Shown one piece after another: positions 8,922 through 42,438 of a stretch of 64,000 bases of DNA (the first letter of the stretch is position 1; each line of letters opens with the position of its first letter). The notes beneath the pieces were generated by a model. The model did not search any database, was not told the origin of the DNA, and worked only from the letters and a program-made list of their open reading frames with translations. The translations under genes and the position numbers were made by a program. Origin of the DNA: an uncultured virus (IMG/VR IMGVR_UViG_3300025174_000006) (taxonomy: Duplodnaviria > Heunggongvirae > Uroviricota > Caudoviricetes); IMG/VR virus record IMGVR_UViG_3300025174_000006. One strand, 5' to 3'.

Positions 8922-9293
8922 TTATGACCCGCTGGACATTCGTTTCAATAATAGCGAATTGTCAACCATAAAAGACTGAAAATCAGAAGTATCAAAGTCA
9001 TCTTTCAATTGTGGTATATCATAAGTGTCATTCACGTTGTTTTTGATGTAATCAATCAACACTTCGAATGTATTTGATTGACATGTTGCCTTAATTGCTG
9101 TCAGTCGTTGTTCAACTTCTAAAAACCATTTAGGTTTCTTTTCTTTTAAATAGTTCATAGCTACAGGTAAGTGATGTGTCATCAAGTTGTCATCGCAAAT
9201 ATGATTTAACATTAAATAGACATCATCTATTTTTGTTGATAATCTCCCATCTACTATGGAAAATAATTGAAGTAAATTAAATTGTTTTGTCAT
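8922..9293 (-). CDS. hypothetical phage protein
   Basis: 123 aa ORF with an A-rich leader. Confidence 0.65.
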   Translation of the reverse strand: MTKQFNLLQLFSIVDGRLSTKIDDVYLMLNHICDDNLMTHHLPVAMNYLKEKKPKWFLEVEQRLTAIKATCQSNTFEVLIDYIKNNVNDTYDIPQLKDDFDTSDFQSFMVDNSLLLKRMSSGS

Positions 9294-9321
9294 TTTATTG
9301 TTGTTTTTAGGTTTATATATT

Positions 9322-9768
9322 CTAATTTATGTTTTCACGTCCTGTTTTTTCCAATTGCTCAGCGAAATGTCCTGAATAGGTTCCATCCTTGGCCGGTAAA
9401 ATAATCCGAATAACGTTCCGGCCAAGTTCTCTAGCTAAAATTGCTTTTACTTTGTATCCGGTTAGGATATCATTATATTCTTTTCCGGGTTCTAATTTTG
9501 TCCCGGATTTGATAAGTCTGAAAGCTGCCCACATTATTCCATTAGCTATTTCTGGAGATACTCTCATACAAAACTGTAAATCGAGATGATCAAAGTTTTC
9601 AGCAATACCATGGGTATGGATGTTGGTACCATATGGGAATTCATCCGGACTTTCATTAAAAACGAAATGAGTATACCATCCAACTTTTTTGATTGAGTCA
9701 CTCTCAAGTTTATTAAAGATTCGCTGGTCACTTGGGAATTTATATACTTTCTCTTTTTTCTTTTTCAT
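9322..9768 (-). CDS. hypothetical protein, possibly DUF4262-like
   Basis: GW.....HTHGIAENFDHLDLQ pattern. Confidence 0.55.
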   Translation of the reverse strand: MKKKKEKVYKFPSDQRIFNKLESDSIKKVGWYTHFVFNESPDEFPYGTNIHTHGIAENFDHLDLQFCMRVSPEIANGIMWAAFRLIKSGTKLEPGKEYNDILTGYKVKAILARELGRNVIRIILPAKDGTYSGHFAEQLEKTGRENIN

Positions 9769-14304: not shown

Positions 14305-14859
14305 TTAGTTGTTATTAAATTGATACTCAACATCTTCCTCGTCATAGAAAAATCCTTGATGTTCACAATCTTCCGGGTAAGGTAAAGAATCCCAAACTTT
14401 CTTCCAATTTTCTTTTGAAGGGAGATTCTCGACAAGTTTAGGAACTTTAAAGCCTCTATTTGCTACAACTGTTAAATTACATCCTCCATAGTCTTTCCAT
14501 CCTTCTTTTATAAGTTGGTTTGCGGTTTTTCCTCCTTGAGATGAAATTGGAGTCTCATAATTGTGAAAATCTTTTATATAAGCCAATTTAACTTTTCCAT
14601 CTGTGATACCTCTTTCTGTAATTTTGCCGGAGAACACTTTTTTTCTTATATCGTCTGAGTTTTTACCGGTGATTCCATTCATTTCTCCAATGAGTGTATA
14701 AATATCTTTACCTCCAAACTCACCATAACCTCCATAATCTTCTTCTGTAAAAACCTGACCATCTTCTGTGATCATATGAACTTTAAAAGTTTCTCTAATT
14801 GATCCGGCATTAGGAATACTCTTTTGAGTATCCGATGTTTTAAAACTGAAATATCCCAT
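14305..14859 (-). CDS. phage hypothetical protein
   Basis: MGYFSF...YGGYGEFGGKD; own promoter. Confidence 0.7.
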   Translation of the reverse strand: MGYFSFKTSDTQKSIPNAGSIRETFKVHMITEDGQVFTEEDYGGYGEFGGKDIYTLIGEMNGITGKNSDDIRKKVFSGKITERGITDGKVKLAYIKDFHNYETPISSQGGKTANQLIKEGWKDYGGCNLTVVANRGFKVPKLVENLPSKENWKKVWDSLPYPEDCEHQGFFYDEEDVEYQFNNN

Positions 14860-17267: not shown

Positions 17268-17351
17268 AGATAAATAGTTTAATTGGTTTGTAATGTGATA
17301 TTTTGTTTATTTATAATGCACTATACAAAATTAAATTGAGACACGTTACAA

Positions 17352-17528
17352 TTATTTAAACAAACGTAATGTTTTATATAATTCTCCAATCTGAGCTTTT
17401 AGAATACGTTGTTCGTGTGCAATAGTATTTATTTGACGCTTATTTGCGGAAAGTTTATTCTGAGCAGTTAATAACTCTCTGGAAACCATTTGCTTACACT
17501 TGTCGAAAACTTCTTTCTTTACATTCAT
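17352..17528 (-). CDS. small coiled-coil protein (58 aa, absent from the ORF track)
   Basis: MNVKKEVFDKCKQ...LRLFK fills the gap between neighbouring genes. Confidence 0.55.
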   Translation of the reverse strand: MNVKKEVFDKCKQMVSRELLTAQNKLSANKRQINTIAHEQRILKAQIGELYKTLRLFK

Positions 17529-17541
17529 TTTGTTCAGGATT

Positions 17542-18009
17542 TTACCGGTTTATTTTTGGTGGAGTTGTTTTAAAAGCTTTTTTATATATTTCTTTTGCTT
17601 GTTTCCAATCCTCTGCACCTCCGTCACATGAAATTTCAGTTTGTGGAAAATGGTGTTTTAATCTTAACATTGAAATTTTAACCATTAAATCGTATGGTTT
17701 ACGTGCACTTTTACAGAACTCAAATATTAGTCCATTTTCTGCACGTCCTTCACTCTGTCTTTCTATCACAAAAGTTTCGTGGCTCATATCATCTTTGTTT
17801 TCGCCGTTGAATATAATAATATCATCGGTAAATTTAGGTTCTCCGGTTCCATCTCCGCCGGCCAATACAATTGATTTATCAATTTGATAATCAGCTGATT
17901 TTGAGCGGTCTGGTAAAAGTCCGGCTACTGTTTTTAATTCCTCTGATAGAATTTTGAATTTTTCGCTGTCCAGTTTTGCTGGAGTTTTGTAGTAGTTCGT
18001 ATATCCGAT
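17542..18009 (-). CDS. hypothetical protein, probable AUC start (MGYTNYY...)
   Basis: frame stays open 48 codons upstream of the tracked TTG, to ATC GGA TAT ACG AAC TAC; FCKSARKPYD motif. Confidence 0.65.
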   Translation of the reverse strand: MGYTNYYKTPAKLDSEKFKILSEELKTVAGLLPDRSKSADYQIDKSIVLAGGDGTGEPKFTDDIIIFNGENKDDMSHETFVIERQSEGRAENGLIFEFCKSARKPYDLMVKISMLRLKHHFPQTEISCDGGAEDWKQAKEIYKKAFKTTPPKINR

Positions 18010-18052
18010 AATTTCTAACGCCCTTTTGGGTGCGCCCTCATTTAGTTAATAC
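18010..18052 (-). promoter_or_regulatory. structured 5' leader preceding an AUC start, copy 1
   Basis: AAATGAGGGCGCACCCAAAAGGGCGTTAGAAATT-ATC; near-identical to 21414-21456. Confidence 0.65.
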
Positions 18053-18141
18053 TGATTTATAATGTACTATACAGAATTTAATTGATAGGTGTTACAAAAA
18101 CAGAAAACAAACATATCTGGTGTAAAATCCTAAAGCAAATA

Positions 18142-18222
18142 TATATACGCAAATTAAAACTATATTTCTGTCACTAATTAATTCTTTTCGTGACAGGAAA
18201 TGAATTGGATTTTACGTATATC
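18142..18222. repeat. double-dyad element copy 2, reversed arm order
   Basis: TATATACG-N19-TGTCAC-N15-GTGACA-N19-CGTATATC. Confidence 0.9.
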
Positions 18223-18340
18223 CTTATTAGGTAAAATCCTTCAGCTGGTGCCTGCTGGCCAGGGATTTGGATTTGAGTTAAAAAGAAAAGAGCCGAACAT
18301 TTAATGCCCGGCTCTAAGCTCGTCGTGTTTAAATAGGATT

Positions 18341-18532
18341 TTACTTCTTTGCAGATGTAGTATCCACTTTTACTTTAGTAGAATCAACAGCACCAGTGCT
18401 ACCTGTTGATACAGGAGCTACAATAATGGTGCTATCAACTGCTGTTGCTGTTACTTCTTCAGTCTTAGCGGTGTTGCAAGAGGAAAAAATAAACGCTGCT
18501 AAAACGGCTGTTAATATCAATGTTTTTTTCAT
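18341..18532 (-). CDS. small lipoprotein
   Basis: signal peptide with lipobox FSSC; VDST repeats. Confidence 0.7.
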   Translation of the reverse strand: MKKTLILTAVLAAFIFSSCNTAKTEEVTATAVDSTIIVAPVSTGSTGAVDSTKVKVDTTSAKK

Positions 18533-18892
18533 GGCTGTAAATATAGATTAAAAAACAAAAAATCCAAGATTAACTCCCGGATTTTTTATTAACAATTTGT
18601 TCGATAAATTAGAATATTTCTTTTAAGGTTTTAAATCCAAGACTATCATCAACTTTGATAGATATTTCTTCGATTTCACTATCTGGATTTATTTCAGCTT
18701 TTACGTGGTACATGAACTCGATAAGAGCTGTGAACGTATCCAAGTCCATTTGCTTTACATCATTAATTATGCGTTCTTCCATTTCTGCCACCGAAGTAGT
18801 TGCGCTTGCAGTGTCTACACTTAGTTTGTCCATGAGATATTTTGTTTTTGATTTGTAATGTACTACAAAATTAAATTCTTTGGTGTTATATT

Positions 18893-19354
18893 TTAATTCA
18901 TCGTTATCATTACATAATCAGTATCAACCAATTGAGCGAGCTCATTTATTTGATTAATTACTTTTTTAGGAACAAGCTCATACAATTTGCCTTTTAATTC
19001 ACTTTTTTCTACTTCTGCAATTTCTCCTGAAATTTCTGCAAATATATCACCCTGAAATATACGCTCACTCATATCGGTAACATCTTTAAATGCTTCACGA
19101 CCTTTTAAAAGTTTAACTACATCATCCAGTAAAACATTTTCCGGCATGGTCATAATTGACATTTTGTGCATTGATTTTAATATATTATGCTTAACAAGTT
19201 CTATTTCCCCGCCAAATGCTCTTGCTTTTTTAATAGCTTCTCCCCTTGTGTATTCTTGTATTACTCCATAAGATGCTAAATATCCATTTCGTTTTTGGTC
19301 AGCTCTTGCATGGTTGTTTTCTTTTAAAACAACTCTGTATAATTTCTTTTCCAT
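18893..19354 (-). CDS. hypothetical protein
   Basis: 153 aa; own promoter. Confidence 0.65.
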   Translation of the reverse strand: MEKKLYRVVLKENNHARADQKRNGYLASYGVIQEYTRGEAIKKARAFGGEIELVKHNILKSMHKMSIMTMPENVLLDDVVKLLKGREAFKDVTDMSERIFQGDIFAEISGEIAEVEKSELKGKLYELVPKKVINQINELAQLVDTDYVMITMN

Positions 19355-20570
19355 GAGATATTTTGTTTTTTGGTTATGATGTACTATACAATATTTAATT
19401 CTTTGGTGTTACAAGGCAGTTATTAAAAATTTAGCTATGGCTTCCAATTCTTCTGCATGAATTAAAATCGAGCCATTACCTTCTGCTTTATCTACTTCCA
19501 AGCCAGTAGAACTTAAATGTCCTATTCGACTTCGTTGTCCATCAATTGTTCTGAATATCCAGAAGTTTCCAACACCATCATCAATAAATTCAAGTTTATG
19601 ATTTTTGAATACAGGGTTTTCTATTATTTTGGTTATTGTTTTCATGGCTTATTTTCTTTCGTTGATTACCTGATAAATTAAATCCTCAACCACAAGACTC
19701 CAATTTGCTGTTTCATCCTGGTTTTGAGCTGCCGGATACCTTTTTAATACTTCTTGAATTTCCGCGTCAGTCAGTTCTTTTTTTAATGAATCGGCGATTG
19801 TTTCGACATCTAAGTCAATTATTTCGTTTTCCATGTTGTTAAGGTATTGAAATTATAACTTTTGCTTCAGGGAGAAACTGAGGCGTTACTTCAACTTTGG
19901 TTGTGTAAAATTCAGCATCATCAGGAGCAAGTCCTTGATGGTCAGCAACATCCTGCAACCCTCCTGCAATGTTGTTAGTAATTGTTTTTATATCTTCATC
20001 AGATGTGATTTTATCTGAAAAGGTAAGTGTTACTAAAAATGTGTGTGTCTTACTCATGGCGTTATGTTTTGTTTACAATGTACTATACAAGAAATAATTG
20101 AATGGTGTTACAAATATTATTCGACTTGTAAAATCCTATCAAGAATCATTCTCTCAACATTCCCATTCTTTATTTTGTTCGCCCACATACCGGCAATTGC
20201 TATAAACTCATCCAATGTATCGGCTTCATCAATTTCTTCTGTTATTTGTTCTAAATCATCTCCCTCTAAGGTGATGGATTTTTTGTATTCTGATTTCAAT
20301 TTGTCTAATGTCATAGCGTTTAGTTTTTTACGTTAATTTCAGTCATTAATATAAAGTCTTCAAGTTCAGCTCCGTCAAGTGATTTACCACCGTCAGCATA
20401 AAATGAAGCAAGCATCATTTCACTTAACTCTTTGAGTTTTGTTGCAATTTCAACGGCTGTTCCACTTCCTGTTATTTTAATTTCTAATTCTTCCATGATA
20501 TTTTGTTTTTGTTTACAATGTACTATACAAGAAATAATTGAATGGTGTTACAGATACGTGAATATATTTG

Positions 20571-21413
20571 TTACGCTTCCACCGCAATTTTACTGTTTTC
20601 TATTCGGGCGTTTTTCATTTCCTCCCTGTTTTGTGGGAAAATATCCCCAAGTTCCTCAACAGTTAAAGTTTTAAATCCTTTAAAACGTTCAAGAAATTTT
20701 TTATTGATTGAAATGTTTTGTTCAAATTCAATTGGTTTTTTATCTTCTTTTGCACTCTTCAATTCATCTTTTGAACAATCGTTTTTGCTTTCAGGATAGT
20801 ATGCTTTCAAATAAGTAGAAGCATCAACAGGTGTCATACGTTTTAGTTTTTCAACTGTGCTATCTCCACCGATATTAACAAAGCAGTATTTTGGATTTTT
20901 AAGTGTAAAATCCATAATTAACACGCCATCATTATTATCTCCCTTATCAAAAGAACTACTATATATCAATTCGTTCTCGTCTATATGTTCTTCATTTAAA
21001 AGACTTAAATGGTCAATGCCAATACGACAATATTTACCCAACTCAAAATCAAACATATTTTGCATATAATTTTTAAACCATTCGATTACATCATTTGGAT
21101 TTTTTATGCTATCACATTTTTTGTGTAGTAAATTATTATAACCATAGGTATCTTCGTGAAAATCTTTAACGGCGAATAAGACTTGAGAAGCCACTAAAGC
21201 AAAAGAGCGACCGTATAACCATTGGTGATGAAAAGCAACTATAATGGTATTTTCTTCACCATACATTTGTTTCCATTTTTTGTATATTTCCTGGTTTGCT
21301 ACATAACCGGTAATATCCTCTCTCCATTCCTTTTTGGAATCAATTTTTATTCTTTTTGCCCATGTTTTGCCAATATTTGGCATCTGGATATAAATTTGGC
21401 TGCGTTGTCCGAT
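20571..21413 (-). CDS. hypothetical protein, probable AUC start (MGQRSQIYI...)
   Basis: 10 in-frame codons upstream of the tracked ATG begin ATC GGA CAA CGC AGC CAA ATT TAT; HHQWLYG and DNNDG motifs. Confidence 0.7.
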   Translation of the reverse strand: MGQRSQIYIQMPNIGKTWAKRIKIDSKKEWREDITGYVANQEIYKKWKQMYGEENTIIVAFHHQWLYGRSFALVASQVLFAVKDFHEDTYGYNNLLHKKCDSIKNPNDVIEWFKNYMQNMFDFELGKYCRIGIDHLSLLNEEHIDENELIYSSSFDKGDNNDGVLIMDFTLKNPKYCFVNIGGDSTVEKLKRMTPVDASTYLKAYYPESKNDCSKDELKSAKEDKKPIEFEQNISINKKFLERFKGFKTLTVEELGDIFPQNREEMKNARIENSKIAVEA

Positions 21414-21456
21414 AATTTTAACGACCTTTTGGGTTCGCCCTCGTTTTAATTAATAC
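21414..21456 (-). promoter_or_regulatory. structured 5' leader preceding an AUC start, copy 2
   Basis: AAAACGAGGGCGAACCCAAAAGGTCGTTAAAATT-ATC. Confidence 0.65.
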
Positions 21457-21820
21457 TTATTTATAATGTACTATACAAGAAATAATTTGATTGTGTTACA
21501 ACTTCGTTGGGTTACACCACAAATAATATGTTTTTATTTCACCAGTTCTCCCTCGCCGTGTTTTCCGGTTAATATTTCTGTGTGGATTTTACTGCAGAAT
21601 GCAAGAATATCTCCCTGTGGATAATCTCCGCTACTATAAGGGCAAGTTATTCTAAGAAACAATTTTGACTCCAGCCGGCTGATGAATTTATGTATTGTTC
21701 CGGATTTTACAATATTGATTTGATTATCTAAGAAAAACTTAAAGTGTGTTGAATACTCAACATCTTCGTTTATCCTGTACCACTGTTTTTCTTTTGATTT
21801 TTCTCCCATGATTTTTATTT

Positions 21821-22582: not shown

Positions 22583-23798
22583 AGGATATAATTTTAGTTT
22601 GTGTTATAATGTACTATACCAAGAAAAATTGAGCTACGTTACAAAATCAATCATCATTTTCAACTTCTTCTTCACCTGTTTCCCATTCTTTTTCTGTGAT
22701 GATATATCCAAAACGATTAACATAATGAAATCCTGCAGAAATAATAAGTTTGCCATCTACATCTAAAATAGTCCAAACACGTTTTTTGGTTTTTTCATCT
22801 TGTGCCATTTTAAGGATATATGCTTCTTCCTCTCTATAAGTTTCATACATTGTTCCACCAAAAGAACAAACATCTTCATCTTTAATTAAAATGTTGGTTT
22901 CAGCTCTAATAATATGATTTATTTGAGGCTTATACTCTTTGTAAAAAACTTCGTCTTTTATTTTCTTTATCTTTTTCATGATTTTGTAATTTTTTATTAT
23001 TGCACTATACAAAAAATTAAATTCCTGTGTTACAAAAAGAAACTTCACACTCTATCTTGCAGATTTTGGATTAGTTCTTCTAAAATAAACTGCTCCTTAT
23101 ATGGCATTTCAGAATCAACGTTCTTAGCTTCTTTTTTGATTTCTTTACAAACTTGAGATGCAATTTTTGCTACAACTTCCTTAAATTCGGGATACCTTTC
23201 AAGACCAATTAAGGGTTTGACTTTATAGTAGTTATCATTAACATATTTAAGGTCATCTTCATAACTGATAGAAACAATCGCTTTCATGTAGGGACTATAT
23301 GCTAAATTGCCGACTTTGATTTTTGAATAATCATCTTTTTCAATCTTGTATTTGACGTTATTATAAGTTGCTGTTTCCATTTTGTTTTTGGTTTATAATG
23401 TACTATACCAATTTTAATTTAATCGCGTTACACTTTTAAATATGTTTCTCCGCATTTTCTCTATTCTTGAAATAAACAGTATCCATTGTTCCTGCAAAAG
23501 GGTTTTGTTCTTTTATAGTAAATGCTTTATCTCCAGCTTCAATTGAAATTCCTGTGTCTTTAAATAAAAACAAGCCTGCTTCATCTTTCCCGATGGTTAC
23601 TTCCTTAACTTTTTCTCCTGTGATTTTCATACTGTTTAATTAAATTATGTTTATATTTTTTCATGTTATATTGGTTGTTGGTTTGTGATGTGATATTTTG
23701 TTTGTTATAATGTACTATACAAATTTTAATTCTTTTGTGTTACAAAGAAGGCGGATGTGGCGTCACAGGCTGGTTTCAGGCGATTTTTTGATTTATTA

Positions 23799-29676: not shown

Positions 29677-29986
29677 TTGTTACATTATAAAACGAATATG
29701 TTTTATAATTGTTTCACAAAACTAAAAAAATTATTCTACTATTCCAAGTTTATTTAAAAAATTATTTGCGTATTCTACTGCATTTTTAATAGATGCTTGA
29801 TGGTCATCCTTGAAATCATAAGCAACGGCATCAATAGCAGAATGTATTTCATTCATTAATTCACACATCGCTTTTAAATTCTCTAATCTTTTAGCATCCA
29901 CTTCTGATTTCCCAACTGGTCTAATTTCACCAATTAGCTTTTTTACTACATCGTAATTTGTCATCGTTTTATGTTTTGAGTTTTAG

Positions 29987-30060
29987 TGGAAGAAATTGGA
30001 TTTGAACCAATGGCACAAACGTTTTCGGCGTTTTGCTCTACCAGACTGAGCTACCCTTCC
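29987..30060 (-). tRNA. tRNA-Phe(GAA)-like gene with C33
   Basis: GGAAGGGTAGCTCAGTCTGGTAGAGC...AAACG-CCGAAAA-CGTTT...GGTTCAAATCC. Confidence 0.75.
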
Positions 30061-32505: not shown

Positions 32506-34780
32506 CTTTAAATTTGAAACTTTACTATTCTTCACCGAATACATGACAAGCAAACGTATCAATGAACTCTTGATCGTTATAGTCGCTGAATTTATCTCCT
32601 ATGATGGTATCATCGCCTTCAAATTTGAACTGGTAATGAAATCCATTCCTCACAGTTCTTATATAGAAGTATTCTTCTCCCTTTTTGTGTTCTATGCCGT
32701 TATTTGCTTCTTTAATGGTGTAAATTCTTTCTTCACCATATTTGGTAATCTTTAAGGATTTTCCTGATAGGATAACTTTAAATCCGTTGTGGGTTATTTT
32801 GTTCATGGGAATAGGTTTTGGTTAGTTTAATTTAATACCTGATTTTTCAATTACTTCTTTTACGTTTCCGCAGGGGAACATCAAACCATTAATATTACCG
32901 TTTCTTAAAAACCTATCTAAATAATGAACTATCATTTCTAAATCGGCTCTACTGCAAGTAATACCAAGAACTTTCACTCCCCTGTATTCACTGTTGTCAA
33001 TTATGTTTTGAACTTTTGCTTTTAAAGCTGTTGCCTTGTTTTTCATGGTGTTTTGTTTTGGTTATAATGTACTATACCAAAAATTAAAACACGGTGTTAC
33101 AAATAAAGGGAGAATAAACGAAGAAAGTCCGAAAAGGGTTTTGTTATTCCCTGTCGGACTTTCTATATGTTGAGCCTTAGCTCTTGTGGCTTATAGCCTA
33201 TGTTTTATTTTTTTCTTTCCGGGGCAGTTAATTTAACAATAAAATGATTGCGATAAACCAAATTTGTTTGGTAAAACGTGCCGGGTAATTGTTTCAATAG
33301 TTTCATTATATAAGTAATTCGGGATTACGCTGCATAAATCCACGTCACGCTCTCTCCGTATTCCTTTACATATAACCATTTCATTTCTTTTTTCCGAGTT
33401 TCTCGCTACGATTCCAAGATTTTCTTCGTTGAATACTTCCGAAGCAACTATTGAAATTCCTAAAATATTCGCAGGTAATTCAATATTAACAATAGAAGTT
33501 TCAAAAATTAGAGGTTGTCCTCTTGCTGATTTTCCATGCTCTGTAATTCTCGGAGCAGTTACCGCCGACAATGTAAAAATAATTTGCGTCAGCATAAAAA
33601 TTAAGCCAATTCGTTTCATGTGTTTTAGTCCTCCTTTGTTTTAATGGTTAATACTACTTTACTACTTGCCTGAGCTTGCGCCTCAAGTTCCTTTGCGTGG
33701 AAATGATACATTTCACATTCGCGATTCATAATCTCTTTTTGCTCCTTCATGCTTTTTTGATTATTTTAAGTTTATTTATAATGTACTATACCAAAATTAA
33801 AAGACAGGTGTTACACTTTTAAAACAATTTATTGTACTTATTTTCGTAGGTAACAGGGAGAACTATCTCTCTTTCAAAAACATCAAACCACGTAGTATCA
33901 GATAATTCATGAAAATCGCCATCTCCAGTAATTTCGTCAATCACTTTTAAATCTTCTTCAAGCACTTCTGCGTTTTTAGTACCTTCGTGTATTATATCAA
34001 CAACGGATTTTACTTCGGCTTTAACTTCTTCAATACTATTATGAACAGTTAAGCCGTGTTCGCCTGATTTGTGGCTCATAAAAAGAATAAATACCTTTTT
34101 CATTTTGTTTGGTTTTAGTTATAAGCAAAATTTCTGTTTTTATTGATAGCGATGGTCATCAGAACAATTTTTTCAGTAAAGTGCATTTTATATTTTTGTT
34201 CTAATAATGTACCTTCTGAATCAATCACTTCCAATTCTTTTTTATCATTCAAATTTTCAGCAGTTGCATATCTTTCGTTTATTTTTTTAAACTCTTCTAA
34301 TAGTTTCGCTTCTTTTTCAACAATTTTAACTATTTTTGCTTCTAAATTTTGTCCGTTGAGTAGCATGATGTTTTAGATTTAGTTGGTTTATAATGTGATA
34401 CTTTGTTGTTTGCAATGTACTATACCAAAAGAAATTGTATTGCGTTACAACTTTATTGAACTATGTTACACAAATACAATATTATGTTTCTTTGCCCAAG
34501 ACTTAGCACGTTGTTCTGCCTTATCTATTTCAGAAGTAAAGCATTTAATAAATCCCCAAGCCTGTCCTACTGGAACAATTCTTGACCGTTGAACATTCCA
34601 CATTCCACCTCTCCAATGAATATAATCAGTAAGAAGGTAATACTTTTGAACTTTGATTTCTGTTTTCGTTTCCATAATGTACTATACAAAAAAGAATTTA
34701 ATCGCGTTACAGAAATATTAGAATAGTTGGCGGATGTTTCTGGAGGAGAAGCCCGTCCAGTAAGGATTTAAACAGATTTT

Positions 34781-35671: not shown

Positions 35672-37126
35672 GACATTTTATTTTGGTTATAATGTACTAT
35701 ACAAAAAATTAAATTGTTGCGTTACAACTTCGTTGGGTTTCACCACAGATTTTTACCCTACCTGTTTTACTTTACCACACTCTTTGCAAATCCAATGATG
35801 TTTATCGCACACTTCTGATACACCATCATCAACGTATATAGCCTTAGTATCACACTCACATTTACACCAAAAATCATCGCTTTCTTCATTTATCTCTTCG
35901 ATTTGTTCTTTAGCATCGCGTTCCTTTTGTAAATTTTTAATAACTTTCCCATCACGAACTTCAAGCGGCCATCCGTATTTAATAAAATCTTTCCCTTTAA
36001 TGTTTGTTTCATTGGTTCTACGAACTCCTTTTTTGTGAGTTATGTTATCTCTTGTCCGAGAATGTGAGCCGGAAGTTTCGCCAAAGTGTTTTTTGTCTTT
36101 ATGCTTTTTGCGGTCTTTAGCAGTGTACTCTTCTCCCTTATATTTTTTTTTTGTCTTGCTCATTTGATTTCAGTTTTACCATTAATGTTAATTACAATGT
36201 ACTATACGAACTTTAATTCTTTTGCGTTACAACTTCGTTGAACTTCGTTACAAGTTATACCATTTCTTCCACATTTGCACCTAATTCTGCTAATACATTT
36301 GAAACGCTAATCATTCTTACTGTGTCTGTTTCAGAAATACACTCGGTGTCAATTTTGTGATAAGCAACTTCAAGAAGGGTTCCGATTTCATCTACATGGT
36401 CTTCTTCTACATACAAAGACGCTGATTCCTTCATTTGAATTCTTTCAGCTTCATTGCTCGTAAAGTAGTCAATAAAATTCTCAATTATCATTAACTTAAA
36501 TTCATCTGTTTTTTTCATGGCTTTATTGTTTGGTTGATTAATTTTTACTTCTCCAGATTTTTATTGCATCTTTTATAGAGTAAAACAAAAATTTTTTCCC
36601 TTGAATGTTAACAACTCCATTACTGTATTTATAAGCATAAACGCCATTTCTAACTTTTGTTTTACTGATTGGGGTTGCGAATAAGTCAGGTTGCATTTGC
36701 TTTTAAGTTTTGGTTTGTAATGTACTATACAAAATTAAATAATATTACGTTACACTTTGCCACAATTCTTTAATTCAGTTTCAGTAGCTATTTTGAATAA
36801 CTCCCAAAACTGTTTGCTTTCCAATAAACACAACTGAATAACACCAAATAACTCCAACATGGTTTTCCGATTATCTCTTTCATTCCATTCTAAAAGATAA
36901 TAATAACATCGTGCAGGAACTTCTATATCATCTAAGCATTTTTTCATAATGTACTGCCGTTAGGCGTATGTTATTTATAACGTACTATACGAAAAAGAAT
37001 TGAGCCATGTTACACGTTACGGGTGCGTTTAGGATTTTACAACAATTAATTGCATCTAACGGATGGCGGATATACGCAGTTTTGCAGCGTTTTGCAGCGA
37101 AAATTTAAGTGATTTTAAAACTAAAA

Positions 37127-37208: not shown

Positions 37209-38080
37209 AAAATCAAAGTAAAATTCCACTGCGGAGCCTCCAGGAAATCTAAAGTTCCGGTGCTTCAGAACTTTGGGCATCAGGATTTTACCACAAAACA
37301 AAAACCCCAACATTTCTGCCGGGGCTTTTTTATTAATCTTTTATCTAATATATAAGTAATCATTATTATAAATTACCTCTTGGGGGCATCTCTTGTCCGA
37401 TTCATCTCGTCTGAGTTTAAGGGTTAATACTAATTAACGCGAATAATGTGTTTAGCTACCAATTCAGCTACAATTACGCTGTTTATTTTTTGTATTGCTT
37501 GGTCTATTGTAAGTCCTAAAAGCAACCATTGTTTTAAGTCCATGTGATTTAATATTAAAGTTAACGTTTGAGTTTATAAATTGCGATTTCCACAAGTACA
37601 ACAATATTTTGCTATCATTAACCTGTTAGTTTTGCAATGATTACAGTAGTGGTTGATTTTTGCTACAACGTATTTTACTTCTGCATTGACAACTTTTGAT
37701 TTGGATTTTATTTCTGTCGTTTCCATGACTTTAAGTTTTGGTTTGTAATGTACTGCCTTCGGCGGCGTTCTTAACGCACTATACCAAAAGAAATTGTATT
37801 GTGTTACAAAAACGGAGTTAATCCCAATCTTTTGCAAGTTCAATGTTTTCTATTAATGTTGAATTACTTTTTAACCATTGGATAGGTTCAGGACAGTTTG
37901 GAGTTTGATCGATTACTGCAACACCATAGTATTTATTGGATTTCCAAATTTCTTTTGCTTGGTCAACTGCAGTCTTAAATGGAAGTCCAGTTGCAACTGG
38001 AACTGCTCCATGCACATCGCTTTTAAATGTGGCTATTTCAAATTTTGTTGTGGCGTTTTTCATGGTTGGTTGTTTTTTGT

Positions 38081-42196: not shown

Positions 42197-42365
42197 TAAA
42201 TTAAAAGAAAAATCCTGTTCTGGAGCCTCCTGGCCGGATTTCCTTCAGCTTCAGTTTCTTGCGGTGAATGGGTTAGTTTAACTCCGCAAAAGTGCGTCGA
42301 ACAGAAAACAAAAAACCCCCGCATTTCTGCAAAGGGCTTTCTGAACCAACCAATAAATTAAAAAG

Positions 42366-42438
42366 TGGAAAGGGTAGGAATTGAACCCACGACACGAGTG
42401 CTTTCGACACCCTGCTCTACCAACTGAGCTACCTCACC
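42366..42438 (-). tRNA. tRNA-Phe(GAA)-like gene with a non-canonical anticodon loop
   Basis: GGTGAGGTAGCTCAGTTGGTAGAGCA-GGGTG-TCGAAAG-CACTC...GGTTCAATTCC. Confidence 0.72.

Follow-up and report, generated by a model that had tools for sequence, protein, structure and literature searches.

In Escherichia coli, infC and pcnB each begin with AUU, one of the AUH codons (H being A, C or U) that act as weak starts and are discriminated by initiation factor 3 (IF3). How ribosomes choose a start site without Shine-Dalgarno (SD) pairing is an open question. Other described systems that invite comparison here are the hairpin operators of the MS2, Q-beta and PP7 coat proteins, the split ribosome-binding sites of T4 genes 38 and 25, preQ1-I and other small H-type pseudoknots, and the intergenic internal ribosome entry site (IRES) of dicistroviruses. 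The subject of this study is a short, hairpin-bearing leader that stands on the minus strand before two genes, here called gene A and gene B, each of which has ATC at the position of its start codon. Both lie in a 64,000-nucleotide stretch of DNA from an uncultured Caudoviricetes virus (IMG/VR record IMGVR_UViG_3300025174_000006), which we call the window; it corresponds to bases 43060-107059 of a 212,632-bp virus record with 29% G+C, 18 transfer RNA (tRNA) genes and an estimated completeness of 81%.

Like infC and pcnB, these genes carry a near-cognate AUH codon where their relatives have AUG, the ATC being aligned to methionine in three protein families, and weak, IF3-dependent initiation would be expected of them. 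Several differences set them apart from infC and pcnB: the codon is AUC rather than AUU, the genes are other than infC, three unrelated families have a conserved hairpin module in common, and the setting is a phage with SD-less leaders. Full-text searches of the literature found no account, for phages or Bacteroidota, of an AUC or ATC start that goes with a conserved leader; the one apparent match concerned the inducer aTc. We regard the element as a cis-acting hairpin of the 5' untranslated region (UTR), in which the new feature appears to be that, in unrelated genes, it is strictly coupled to an AUC start. It is very likely, in our judgment, that the hairpin is a selected RNA structure and that the AUC occupies the initiation-codon position of a gene; translation probably does begin at this AUC, presumably read by the initiator tRNA.

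A preliminary description of this DNA had placed the two leaders at 18010-18052 and 21414-21456 (minus strand), and both are present there. Their 24-nt core, GAGGGCGMACCCAAAAGGKCGTTA, has two matches in the window, namely the two leaders (0 of 100 dinucleotide-preserving shuffles gave a match), and these are also the sole matches in the whole record. Aligned with each other, the leaders match over the whole span that begins with the promoter and closes with ATCGGA, apart from two 1-nt indels and a few substitutions, and part ways immediately past the GGA; both are long and G-rich, unlike the short, A-rich leaders behind the other promoters of this phage. As had been claimed, ATC-GGA is in frame with the downstream open reading frame (ORF) in both genes, and an in-frame stop lies 36 nt upstream of each ATC. 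Contigs of four other public runs, possibly from one sampling campaign, have 0 differing letters over both leaders and both ATC codons, and the ATC is therefore not the error of a single assembly. The phage occurs in 20 DNA runs, and among 23 runs no RNA run that carries it is listed.

The module recurs beyond the window. A metagenome scan with GAGGGCGNACCCAAAAGGNCG, a pattern that does not contain the ATC, found 11 loci (8 distinct sequences), two of which are the window's own, and all 11 continue TTA-NN-A-Y-TATCGGA at equal distance. A looser viral scan, again without ATC in the pattern, brought in two more: L101, which belongs to a complete phage of 345 kb, and L102 (the same locus as L055). 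In bacterial genomes rich in G+C this pattern gave three matches, all without either flank, and we use them as a control for chance hits. L155, the eleventh member, came from a pattern in which the ATC was specified and the helix left free. When the codon after each motif copy was tabulated, a check that the preliminary description had proposed, it was in-frame ATC-GGA in 10 of the 10 distinct sequences that came from ATC-free patterns, and all 11 members have U-AUC-GGA-YA at a fixed distance and in frame with an ORF. At the level of sequence, we take the link between motif and ATC to be real.

Family A (MGYTHYW) accounts for gene A, L010, L011, L018, L019, L101 and L102; family B (MGQRSQIYI) for gene B and L009; and a third family (MGQYYKP) for L007 and L155. 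The three are mutually unrelated, with an hhalign probability of 2.8% for A against B. Among the members the module follows at least three promoter contexts, and it therefore acts after transcription. A covariance model of the motif (R1), run over 85 viral loci of families A and B, matched L055 only, and no canonical-start locus among these 85 scored above 14.8 bits. The same model found no further strong copies in five phage records, and the weak matches that were examined (11-15 bits) lie inside coding sequence or have only the UUAUCGGA end in common.

When homologues are aligned, their ATG corresponds exactly to the ATC in both window genes and in the third family as well. For gene A, the annotated coding sequences of Microbacterium phage Big4 and Lysinibacillus phage LysYB1 begin M-G-Y-T exactly opposite I-G-Y-T. 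Across 59 distinct viral loci of family A, the codon aligned to the ATC is ATG in 51, GTG in 4, ATC in 3 and TTG in 1; this count comes from a protein-based scan of viral contigs in which 80 of 225 confirmed loci were kept, 8 of the 80 were left out as internal matches only, and the remaining 72 reduce to the 59. For family B, an MGQ start stands opposite I-G-Q in 26 of the 31 aligned homologues, the other five having an internal Met start (three) or a shorter N terminus (two). In the third family, 115 of 120 homologues, among the matches listed, start with MGQY. One gene call in that family, P0040, begins at a GTG further upstream and reads ...GRKT-I-GQYYKP, Ile standing in the place of Met; the gene is probably one more AUH-start member, its leader being a variant.

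The Met-Gly N terminus is strictly conserved in all three motif-linked families, which hints that a Gly-first end may matter for function. A start at AUC would yield the same Met-Gly, and then Gly-first, protein as in the ATG-start relatives. The neighboring genes that had been cited as MG-type, MGTRS and MGYFS, do exist, and both start ATG-GGA. The latter (14305-14859, minus strand) reads ATG-GGA-TAT behind an ordinary A-rich leader and is a normal start for a Met-Gly-Tyr protein in the same phage.

Each of the 11 members has an in-frame stop 15-39 nt ahead of its ATC and no ATG, GTG, TTG or CTG in the interval, and the codon that precedes the ATC is ATT in 6 and ACT in 5, so that only the ATC is constant. 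Between the ATC-start genes the ratio of nonsynonymous to synonymous substitution (dN/dS) is 0.09-0.39, and synonymous sites are near saturation (synonymous differences per site, pS, 0.50-0.72). Over the 10 codons of gene B ahead of its first ATG, the nonsynonymous counterpart pN is 0.10 and pS is 0.77. The first codons of the ATC-start genes are coding and under purifying selection. AlphaFold (AF2) models place the first beta-strand at residues 4-10 in protein A and 4-12 in protein B, and a start at the downstream TTG or ATG would remove it.

Could the ATC instead mark decaying or mis-sequenced genes, that is, a pseudogene start mutation or an assembly artifact? In its favor, gene callers refuse ATC and shorten these genes: public calls begin gene A at a TTG 48 codons downstream (the Atlas record runs from residue 49) and gene B at Met-11, calls are also short for P0001, P0003 and P0030, and P0003, P0027 and P0032 are short-call candidates for further membership. 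Shortened calls are, in turn, what is expected where the true start is a codon that gene callers refuse. The same ATC stands in 11 divergent loci with intact ORFs and the low dN/dS given above, the independent assemblies are identical at the ATC site, and the leader is under strong constraint. We give this reading hardly any credence, and as far as sequence alone can show, it is refuted.

Numbered from an invariant G1-A2-G3 on its 5' side, the motif forms a 7-bp helix (G4-U23, G5-U22, C6-G21, G7-C20, N8-N19, C10-G18 and C11-G17) with a bulged A9 and a (C/U)AAAA loop. Pairing holds in 77 of 77 cells (11 members by 7 pairs), and three of the seven pairs show compensatory changes: pair 8-19 is C-G in 4 members, U-A in 4, A-U in 2 and U-G in 1; pair 10-18 is C-G in 8, U-A in 2 and U-G in 1; and G7-C20 is flipped to C-G in L155. 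When the partner columns are slid, at most 43% of cells pair, and none of 500 shuffles matched the observed pairing percentage or covariation score, a control that yields no probability for related sequences. RNAalifold, unaided, gives the same hairpin, and single-sequence folding recovers it in several members. Since the covarying pairs include G-U, the structure exists on the sense RNA only. The core falls in a different reading frame in gene A than in the other copies, and the conservation is therefore at the nucleotide (RNA) level and not at that of protein.

The hairpin ends 6 nt from the AUC in ten members and 7 nt from it in gene A. Beyond the pairs, the invariant positions are G1-A2-G3, the bulged A, loop A13-A16 and A24; downstream they are A at -3, U at -1, and AUC-GGA followed by Y-A. 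Between gene A and L018, the leaders differ by about 4 substitutions and 1 indel over 33 nt, and the adjoining gene has a pS of 0.72; that is, the leader is far more conserved than synonymous sites. The motif is a small, specific element and not a large fold.

The fold originally suggested, an AAYG/CGTT stem enclosing a GGG-CGMA-CCC hairpin, fares less well, with 93.5% of cells paired, 5 of 77 unpaired (in the outer stem) and 0 compensatory pairs. A pseudoknot of GGG:CCC with CGN:N'CG pairs in 100% of cells, but it has no inter-stem linker and fits the U10-A18 change less well, and we keep it as a minor alternative. In this respect the module resembles preQ1-I and the small H-type pseudoknots, being of similar size and having a G/C helix followed by an A-rich tail able to pair with the loop. 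Unlike preQ1-I, it has no cmscan match at E<=10, its pseudoknot would have no linker nucleotide between the two stems, the U10-A18 and C7-G20 changes fit a plain hairpin, and the downstream genes are not queuosine genes. Neither leader matches Rfam 15 (cmscan over window 17400-21600, E<=10; three weak matches, all elsewhere), and the label "riboswitch-like" is not borne out for what is a 20-nt hairpin. An intrinsic terminator or attenuator was also considered and rejected: no U run directly follows the hairpin, and A-N-N-A-Y-U-AUC stands there instead.

A further possibility is that nothing starts at the AUC and that a short upstream ORF, from an (A/C)NG codon just before the hairpin, brings ribosomes into the gene by termination-reinitiation, a frameshift at CCCAAAA or bypass onto the GGA. 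Six of 11 members have ATG as the codon that ends at G1, and in 6 of 11 this frame closes after 8 codons, 4-5 nt short of the AUC; CCCAAAA is shaped like a slippery heptamer, and GGA is the landing codon in the bypassing of T4 gene 60. Yet the ATG and the 8-codon ORF occur together in only 3 of 11 members, the others having ACG, AAG or CTG as first codon or extending, over 17-25 codons, into the gene; no single shift fits all, since the offset between the frames is 2 in gene A and 1 in the other ten members; the base-pair covariation of positions 8 and 19 has no explanation in coding; and homologues start exactly at M-G, with no N-terminal extension. We consider this explanation very improbable, and we set it aside because start codon, length and frame offset all vary among members.

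The transcripts of this phage provide the context for the module. A promoter of the type TGTAAC[AG]N-N~17-TGTATAGTACAT occurs in 64 copies in the virus record, nearly all on the minus strand, and stands before most genes (window 14181-49468). Nine genes are leaderless, with ATG 1 nt past the promoter core, and the transcription start is therefore placed about 2 nt after that core. The remaining genes have a median leader of 21 nt that is 57% A and 4% G. GGAG, GAGG, AGGA and GGGG occur in 0 of the 61 ordinary promoter-proximal leaders, and the phage therefore probably translates without SD sequences. Two features, the SD-less leaders and the TTTG...TAnnTTTG-like promoter that precedes the related locus L007, suggest a host among the Bacteroidota, this promoter consensus being one that we take to be of Bacteroidota type.

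We propose that the best explanation of these observations would be a modular translation-initiation region carried on the messenger RNA, and we put its probability at about 0.45. The module would have five parts: an A/U-rich stretch with stops; the invariant GAG; the hairpin, of formula GGCGN-A-CC / (C/U)AAAA / GG-N'CGUU with its bulged A; a 6-7-nt spacer, A-N-N-A-Y-U; and AUC-GGA-YA. More tentatively, the G-rich hairpin with its GAGG flank may anchor the 30S subunit in register over the weak, near-cognate AUC. In this arrangement the hairpin would occupy the place of the SD-antiSD helix, 6-7 nt 5' of the P site, in leaders that are otherwise nearly G-free, and the conserved U at -1 and A at -3 would add context. 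The outcome would be low translation, probably dependent on IF3 fidelity as for other AUH starts, and the module would have moved between unrelated genes with Met-Gly products.

A parallel to such an anchor is the split ribosome-binding site of T4 genes 38 and 25, in which a purine tract is parted from the start by a hairpin. Here the tract is GAGG, GAGG(G) being invariant in 11 of 11 members and the intervening hairpin supported, and with the hairpin looped out the effective spacing of 8-9 nt (U22 to U-1) is SD-like. Unlike the T4 case, the other 61 leaders of the phage have no SD-like tetramer, so that SD use by the host ribosome is doubtful, and the bulge and loop are conserved in sequence.

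IF3 and tRNA genes of the motif-bearing phages bear on how an AUC could be read. An IF3 homologue is encoded in one motif-bearing record, G001, the 53.6-kb contig of L007 (L153, G001:C1:35139-35390; IF3_C, E 4.5e-27; a 164-aa ORF with an ATG start), which is suggestive, but the other four records have none. A second, shorter IF3_C match lies nearby on the same contig (L154, G001:C1:34132-34293). A phage bS21 was found in 0 of 5 records. A special phage tRNA that reads AUC was rejected as a general explanation: there is no tRNA-Ile(GAU) among the 15 tRNA matches of the complete motif-bearing phage G002 and none in the fragments G001 and G003. The copy in our phage (G000:C1:174644-174718, minus strand; ARAGORN) has C for the near-universal U at position 33, with no initiator-type anticodon stem and no 1:72 mismatch.

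Several points weigh against a modular initiation region of this kind. The invariance of the core is partly built in by the exact-match search patterns, although the scans behind 10 of the 11 members put no constraint on ATC-GGA, on the flanks or on positions 8 and 19 (free positions were 8, 19 and the flanks in the first scans, also 10, 12 and 18 in the looser one, and 5-8, 10-12 and 17-21 in the ATC-including pattern). The sample is 11 sequences, the count of doubly changed pairs was matched by 22 of 500 shuffles, and whole leaders are not more stable than shuffled sequence (z -0.8 to +1.4). If the host is a member of the Bacteroidota, its ribosomes would normally work without SD pairing, the anti-SD being sequestered (PMC7797042). 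A structured, G-rich region by the start normally inhibits initiation in SD-less bacteria (PMC6847099), and a repressive operator therefore fits as well as an anchor does. Lastly, the strict conservation of bulge and loop suits a specific binding site better than a passive spacer.

The points on structure near the start and on the sequestered anti-SD keep in play a rival, a translational operator, in which a phage or host RNA-binding protein reads the bulged A, the (C/U)AAAA loop and the GAG flank and controls (represses or activates) a small early-gene regulon, with the AUC merely keeping basal expression low and being co-inherited with the operator. The invariant bulge, loop, GAG and A24 are all more than a plain helix needs, the two basal G-U pairs are never G-C or A-U in the 11 members, and the genome has two copies, on unrelated genes. 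Moreover, the form resembles that of the single-stranded RNA phage operators of MS2, Q-beta and PP7: a small start-adjacent hairpin with a bulged A on its 5' strand, an A-rich loop and conservation beyond pairing. Those operators are hairpins with a bulged purine that bind a cognate protein and contain the start codon; here there is a bulged A as well, but the start, an AUC, stands 6-7 nt beyond the hairpin, and the phage is a double-stranded DNA jumbo phage. An operator also leaves unexplained why all 11 copies have AUC rather than AUG, its invariance is in part a product of the search patterns, and a candidate binding protein was not identified. On balance we consider an operator possible but doubtful.

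An AUC at the start position also occurs without this hairpin, in four cases, and this too weighs against the proposed initiation region. In L022 the hairpin is a different one, ending 7 nt before the ATC, and a TAG stands in frame 3 nt before the ATC; another 13 codons up from the TAG comes a TAA, the next stop in that frame, with no canonical start between the two. The contig of L022 (G004; L122/L134) has, among 16 tRNA matches, a tRNA with anticodon CUA, of amber-suppressor type, and TAG may be recoded in that phage. L076, from a phage rich in G+C, carries a GGAG that stands 8 nt before the ATC. L138, of family B, has only UUAGAAAUUAUCGGA in common with the motif and no clear hairpin. The fourth case is a third gene of our phage, outside the window (G000:C1 ~9060-9466, minus strand; locus L142:159-548), which has no hairpin leader: a standard promoter is followed by ...AAAUUAUAC-AUC-AUU (in a longer reading, ...AAATTATAC-ATC-ATT-AAA), and the 146-codon open frame contains no ATG, with a DUF6891 match (E 1e-18) and tblastn matches that begin before its first TTG. 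The third gene thus probably has a noncanonical AUC start.

These cases imply that the hairpin is one conserved way of packaging an AUC start and not a prerequisite for it, and because of them the proposal that the leader "licenses" AUC initiation is unproven. The recurrent AUC start would then be a habit of these phage gene families. Do they also imply that hairpin and AUC are functionally independent, the hairpin being an element of mRNA stability or processing and the AUC a separate, recurrent way to keep proteins scarce, the two traveling together only through block copying of the 5' end between genes? Besides the hairpin-free starts, the ATC-to-TTG count of 3 versus 1 among the 59 family A starts would fit, as the family may favor weak starts. 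Against independence stand the nearly fixed spacing, the unbroken conservation from the hairpin through U-AUC-GGA-YA beside coding parts that are saturated at synonymous sites, and the motif count of 0 in 56 distinct canonical-start loci of family A. We think independence quite unlikely.

Could the hairpin, at the other extreme, be a self-sufficient, structure-directed initiation signal for SD-less ribosomes? Docking at the SD place would fix the frame geometrically and relax start-codon identity, so that the ribosome would be set on AUC, or even on the GGA behind it, with the usual codon-anticodon proofreading left out. Solely under such a reading would the element recall the dicistrovirus intergenic IRES, in which RNA structure by a non-AUG codon sets the frame. 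The dicistrovirus element, unlike this 20-nt hairpin, is about 190 nt long with three pseudoknots and serves eukaryotic ribosomes, and independence of initiator tRNA is not indicated here. We judge a self-sufficient signal unlikely; if true, it would be a small prokaryotic counterpart of an IRES, a portable cassette among phage genes for Gly-first proteins.

Neither protein A nor protein B has a Pfam or PHROG family, and Atlas searches with both returned unnamed viral clusters only. Their AlphaFold models are confident (predicted local distance difference test, pLDDT, 94.7 for A and 88.1 for B), and a search of the PDB gave no convincing fold match (Foldseek E>=0.29 for A and E>=4.4 for B), nor did VIA-align find a convincing solved structure for A (best Z 4.3). 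The features of the two loci are collected in Table 1.

Table 1. Features of the gene A and gene B loci, in window coordinates
Feature	Position	Strand	Remarks
Promoter of gene A, TGTAACAC-N17-TGTATAGTACAT	18062..18097	-	One of 64 such promoters in the record
5' UTR of gene A	18010..18060	-	Transcription start near 18060 inferred from 9 leaderless genes
Invariant G1-A2-G3, just 5' of hairpin A	18037-18039	-	
Hairpin A	18017..18036	-	G4-U23, G5-U22, C6-G21, G7-C20, C8-G19, bulged A9, C10-G18, C11-G17; loop CAAAA
ATC at start-codon position of gene A	18007..18009	-	7 nt past hairpin
Gene A	17542..18009	-	155 aa; family MGYT[HN]Y[WYF]...FNG...HETF...FCKTARKPYD...SDG
Promoter of gene B	21466..21500	-	
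5' UTR of gene B	21414..21464	-	Transcription start inferred
Invariant GAG by hairpin B	21440-21442	-	
Hairpin B	21420..21439	-	Helix as in hairpin A but A8-U19
ATC at start-codon position of gene B	21411..21413	-	6 nt past hairpin; first ATG 10 codons downstream (21383)
Gene B	20571..21413	-	280 aa; family MGQRSQIYI...HHQWLYGRS...GDNNDGVL...KYCF

Two other aspects of the promoters of this phage were observed along the way. Several leaders (window ~37740-37785, 36950-36991, 34380-34426, 23680-23721 and 17285-17327, minus strand, and G000:C1 ~21320-21364) repeat the 3' end of the promoter, as AGTACATTA[CT]AAACC or ATCACATTA..., 20-35 nt downstream of it. In three of them a small GCC...GGC hairpin precedes the repeat (e.g., gccgccgaaggcAGTACATTA), and the repeat may serve as a second start site or in processing. 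There are also two tRNA-Phe(GAA) genes, at window 29986-30060 and 42365-42438 (minus strand), the first of which stands directly behind a phage promoter, its 5' end about 7 nt past the promoter core.

For annotation, the consequence is practical: gene callers shorten or miss these genes, and a motif that flags AUC would correct phage proteins with conserved Gly-first N termini. For the study of initiation, the module is a compact, natural element of 45 nt that is strictly tied to a near-cognate start, and its compensatory helix changes and fixed spacing make the question testable. The presence of the module on few of the many early genes driven by one promoter type points to what may be a small, separately controlled regulon among them. 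In total, these observations suggest that large environmental phages have a hitherto unreported means of determining the site and the strength of translation initiation.

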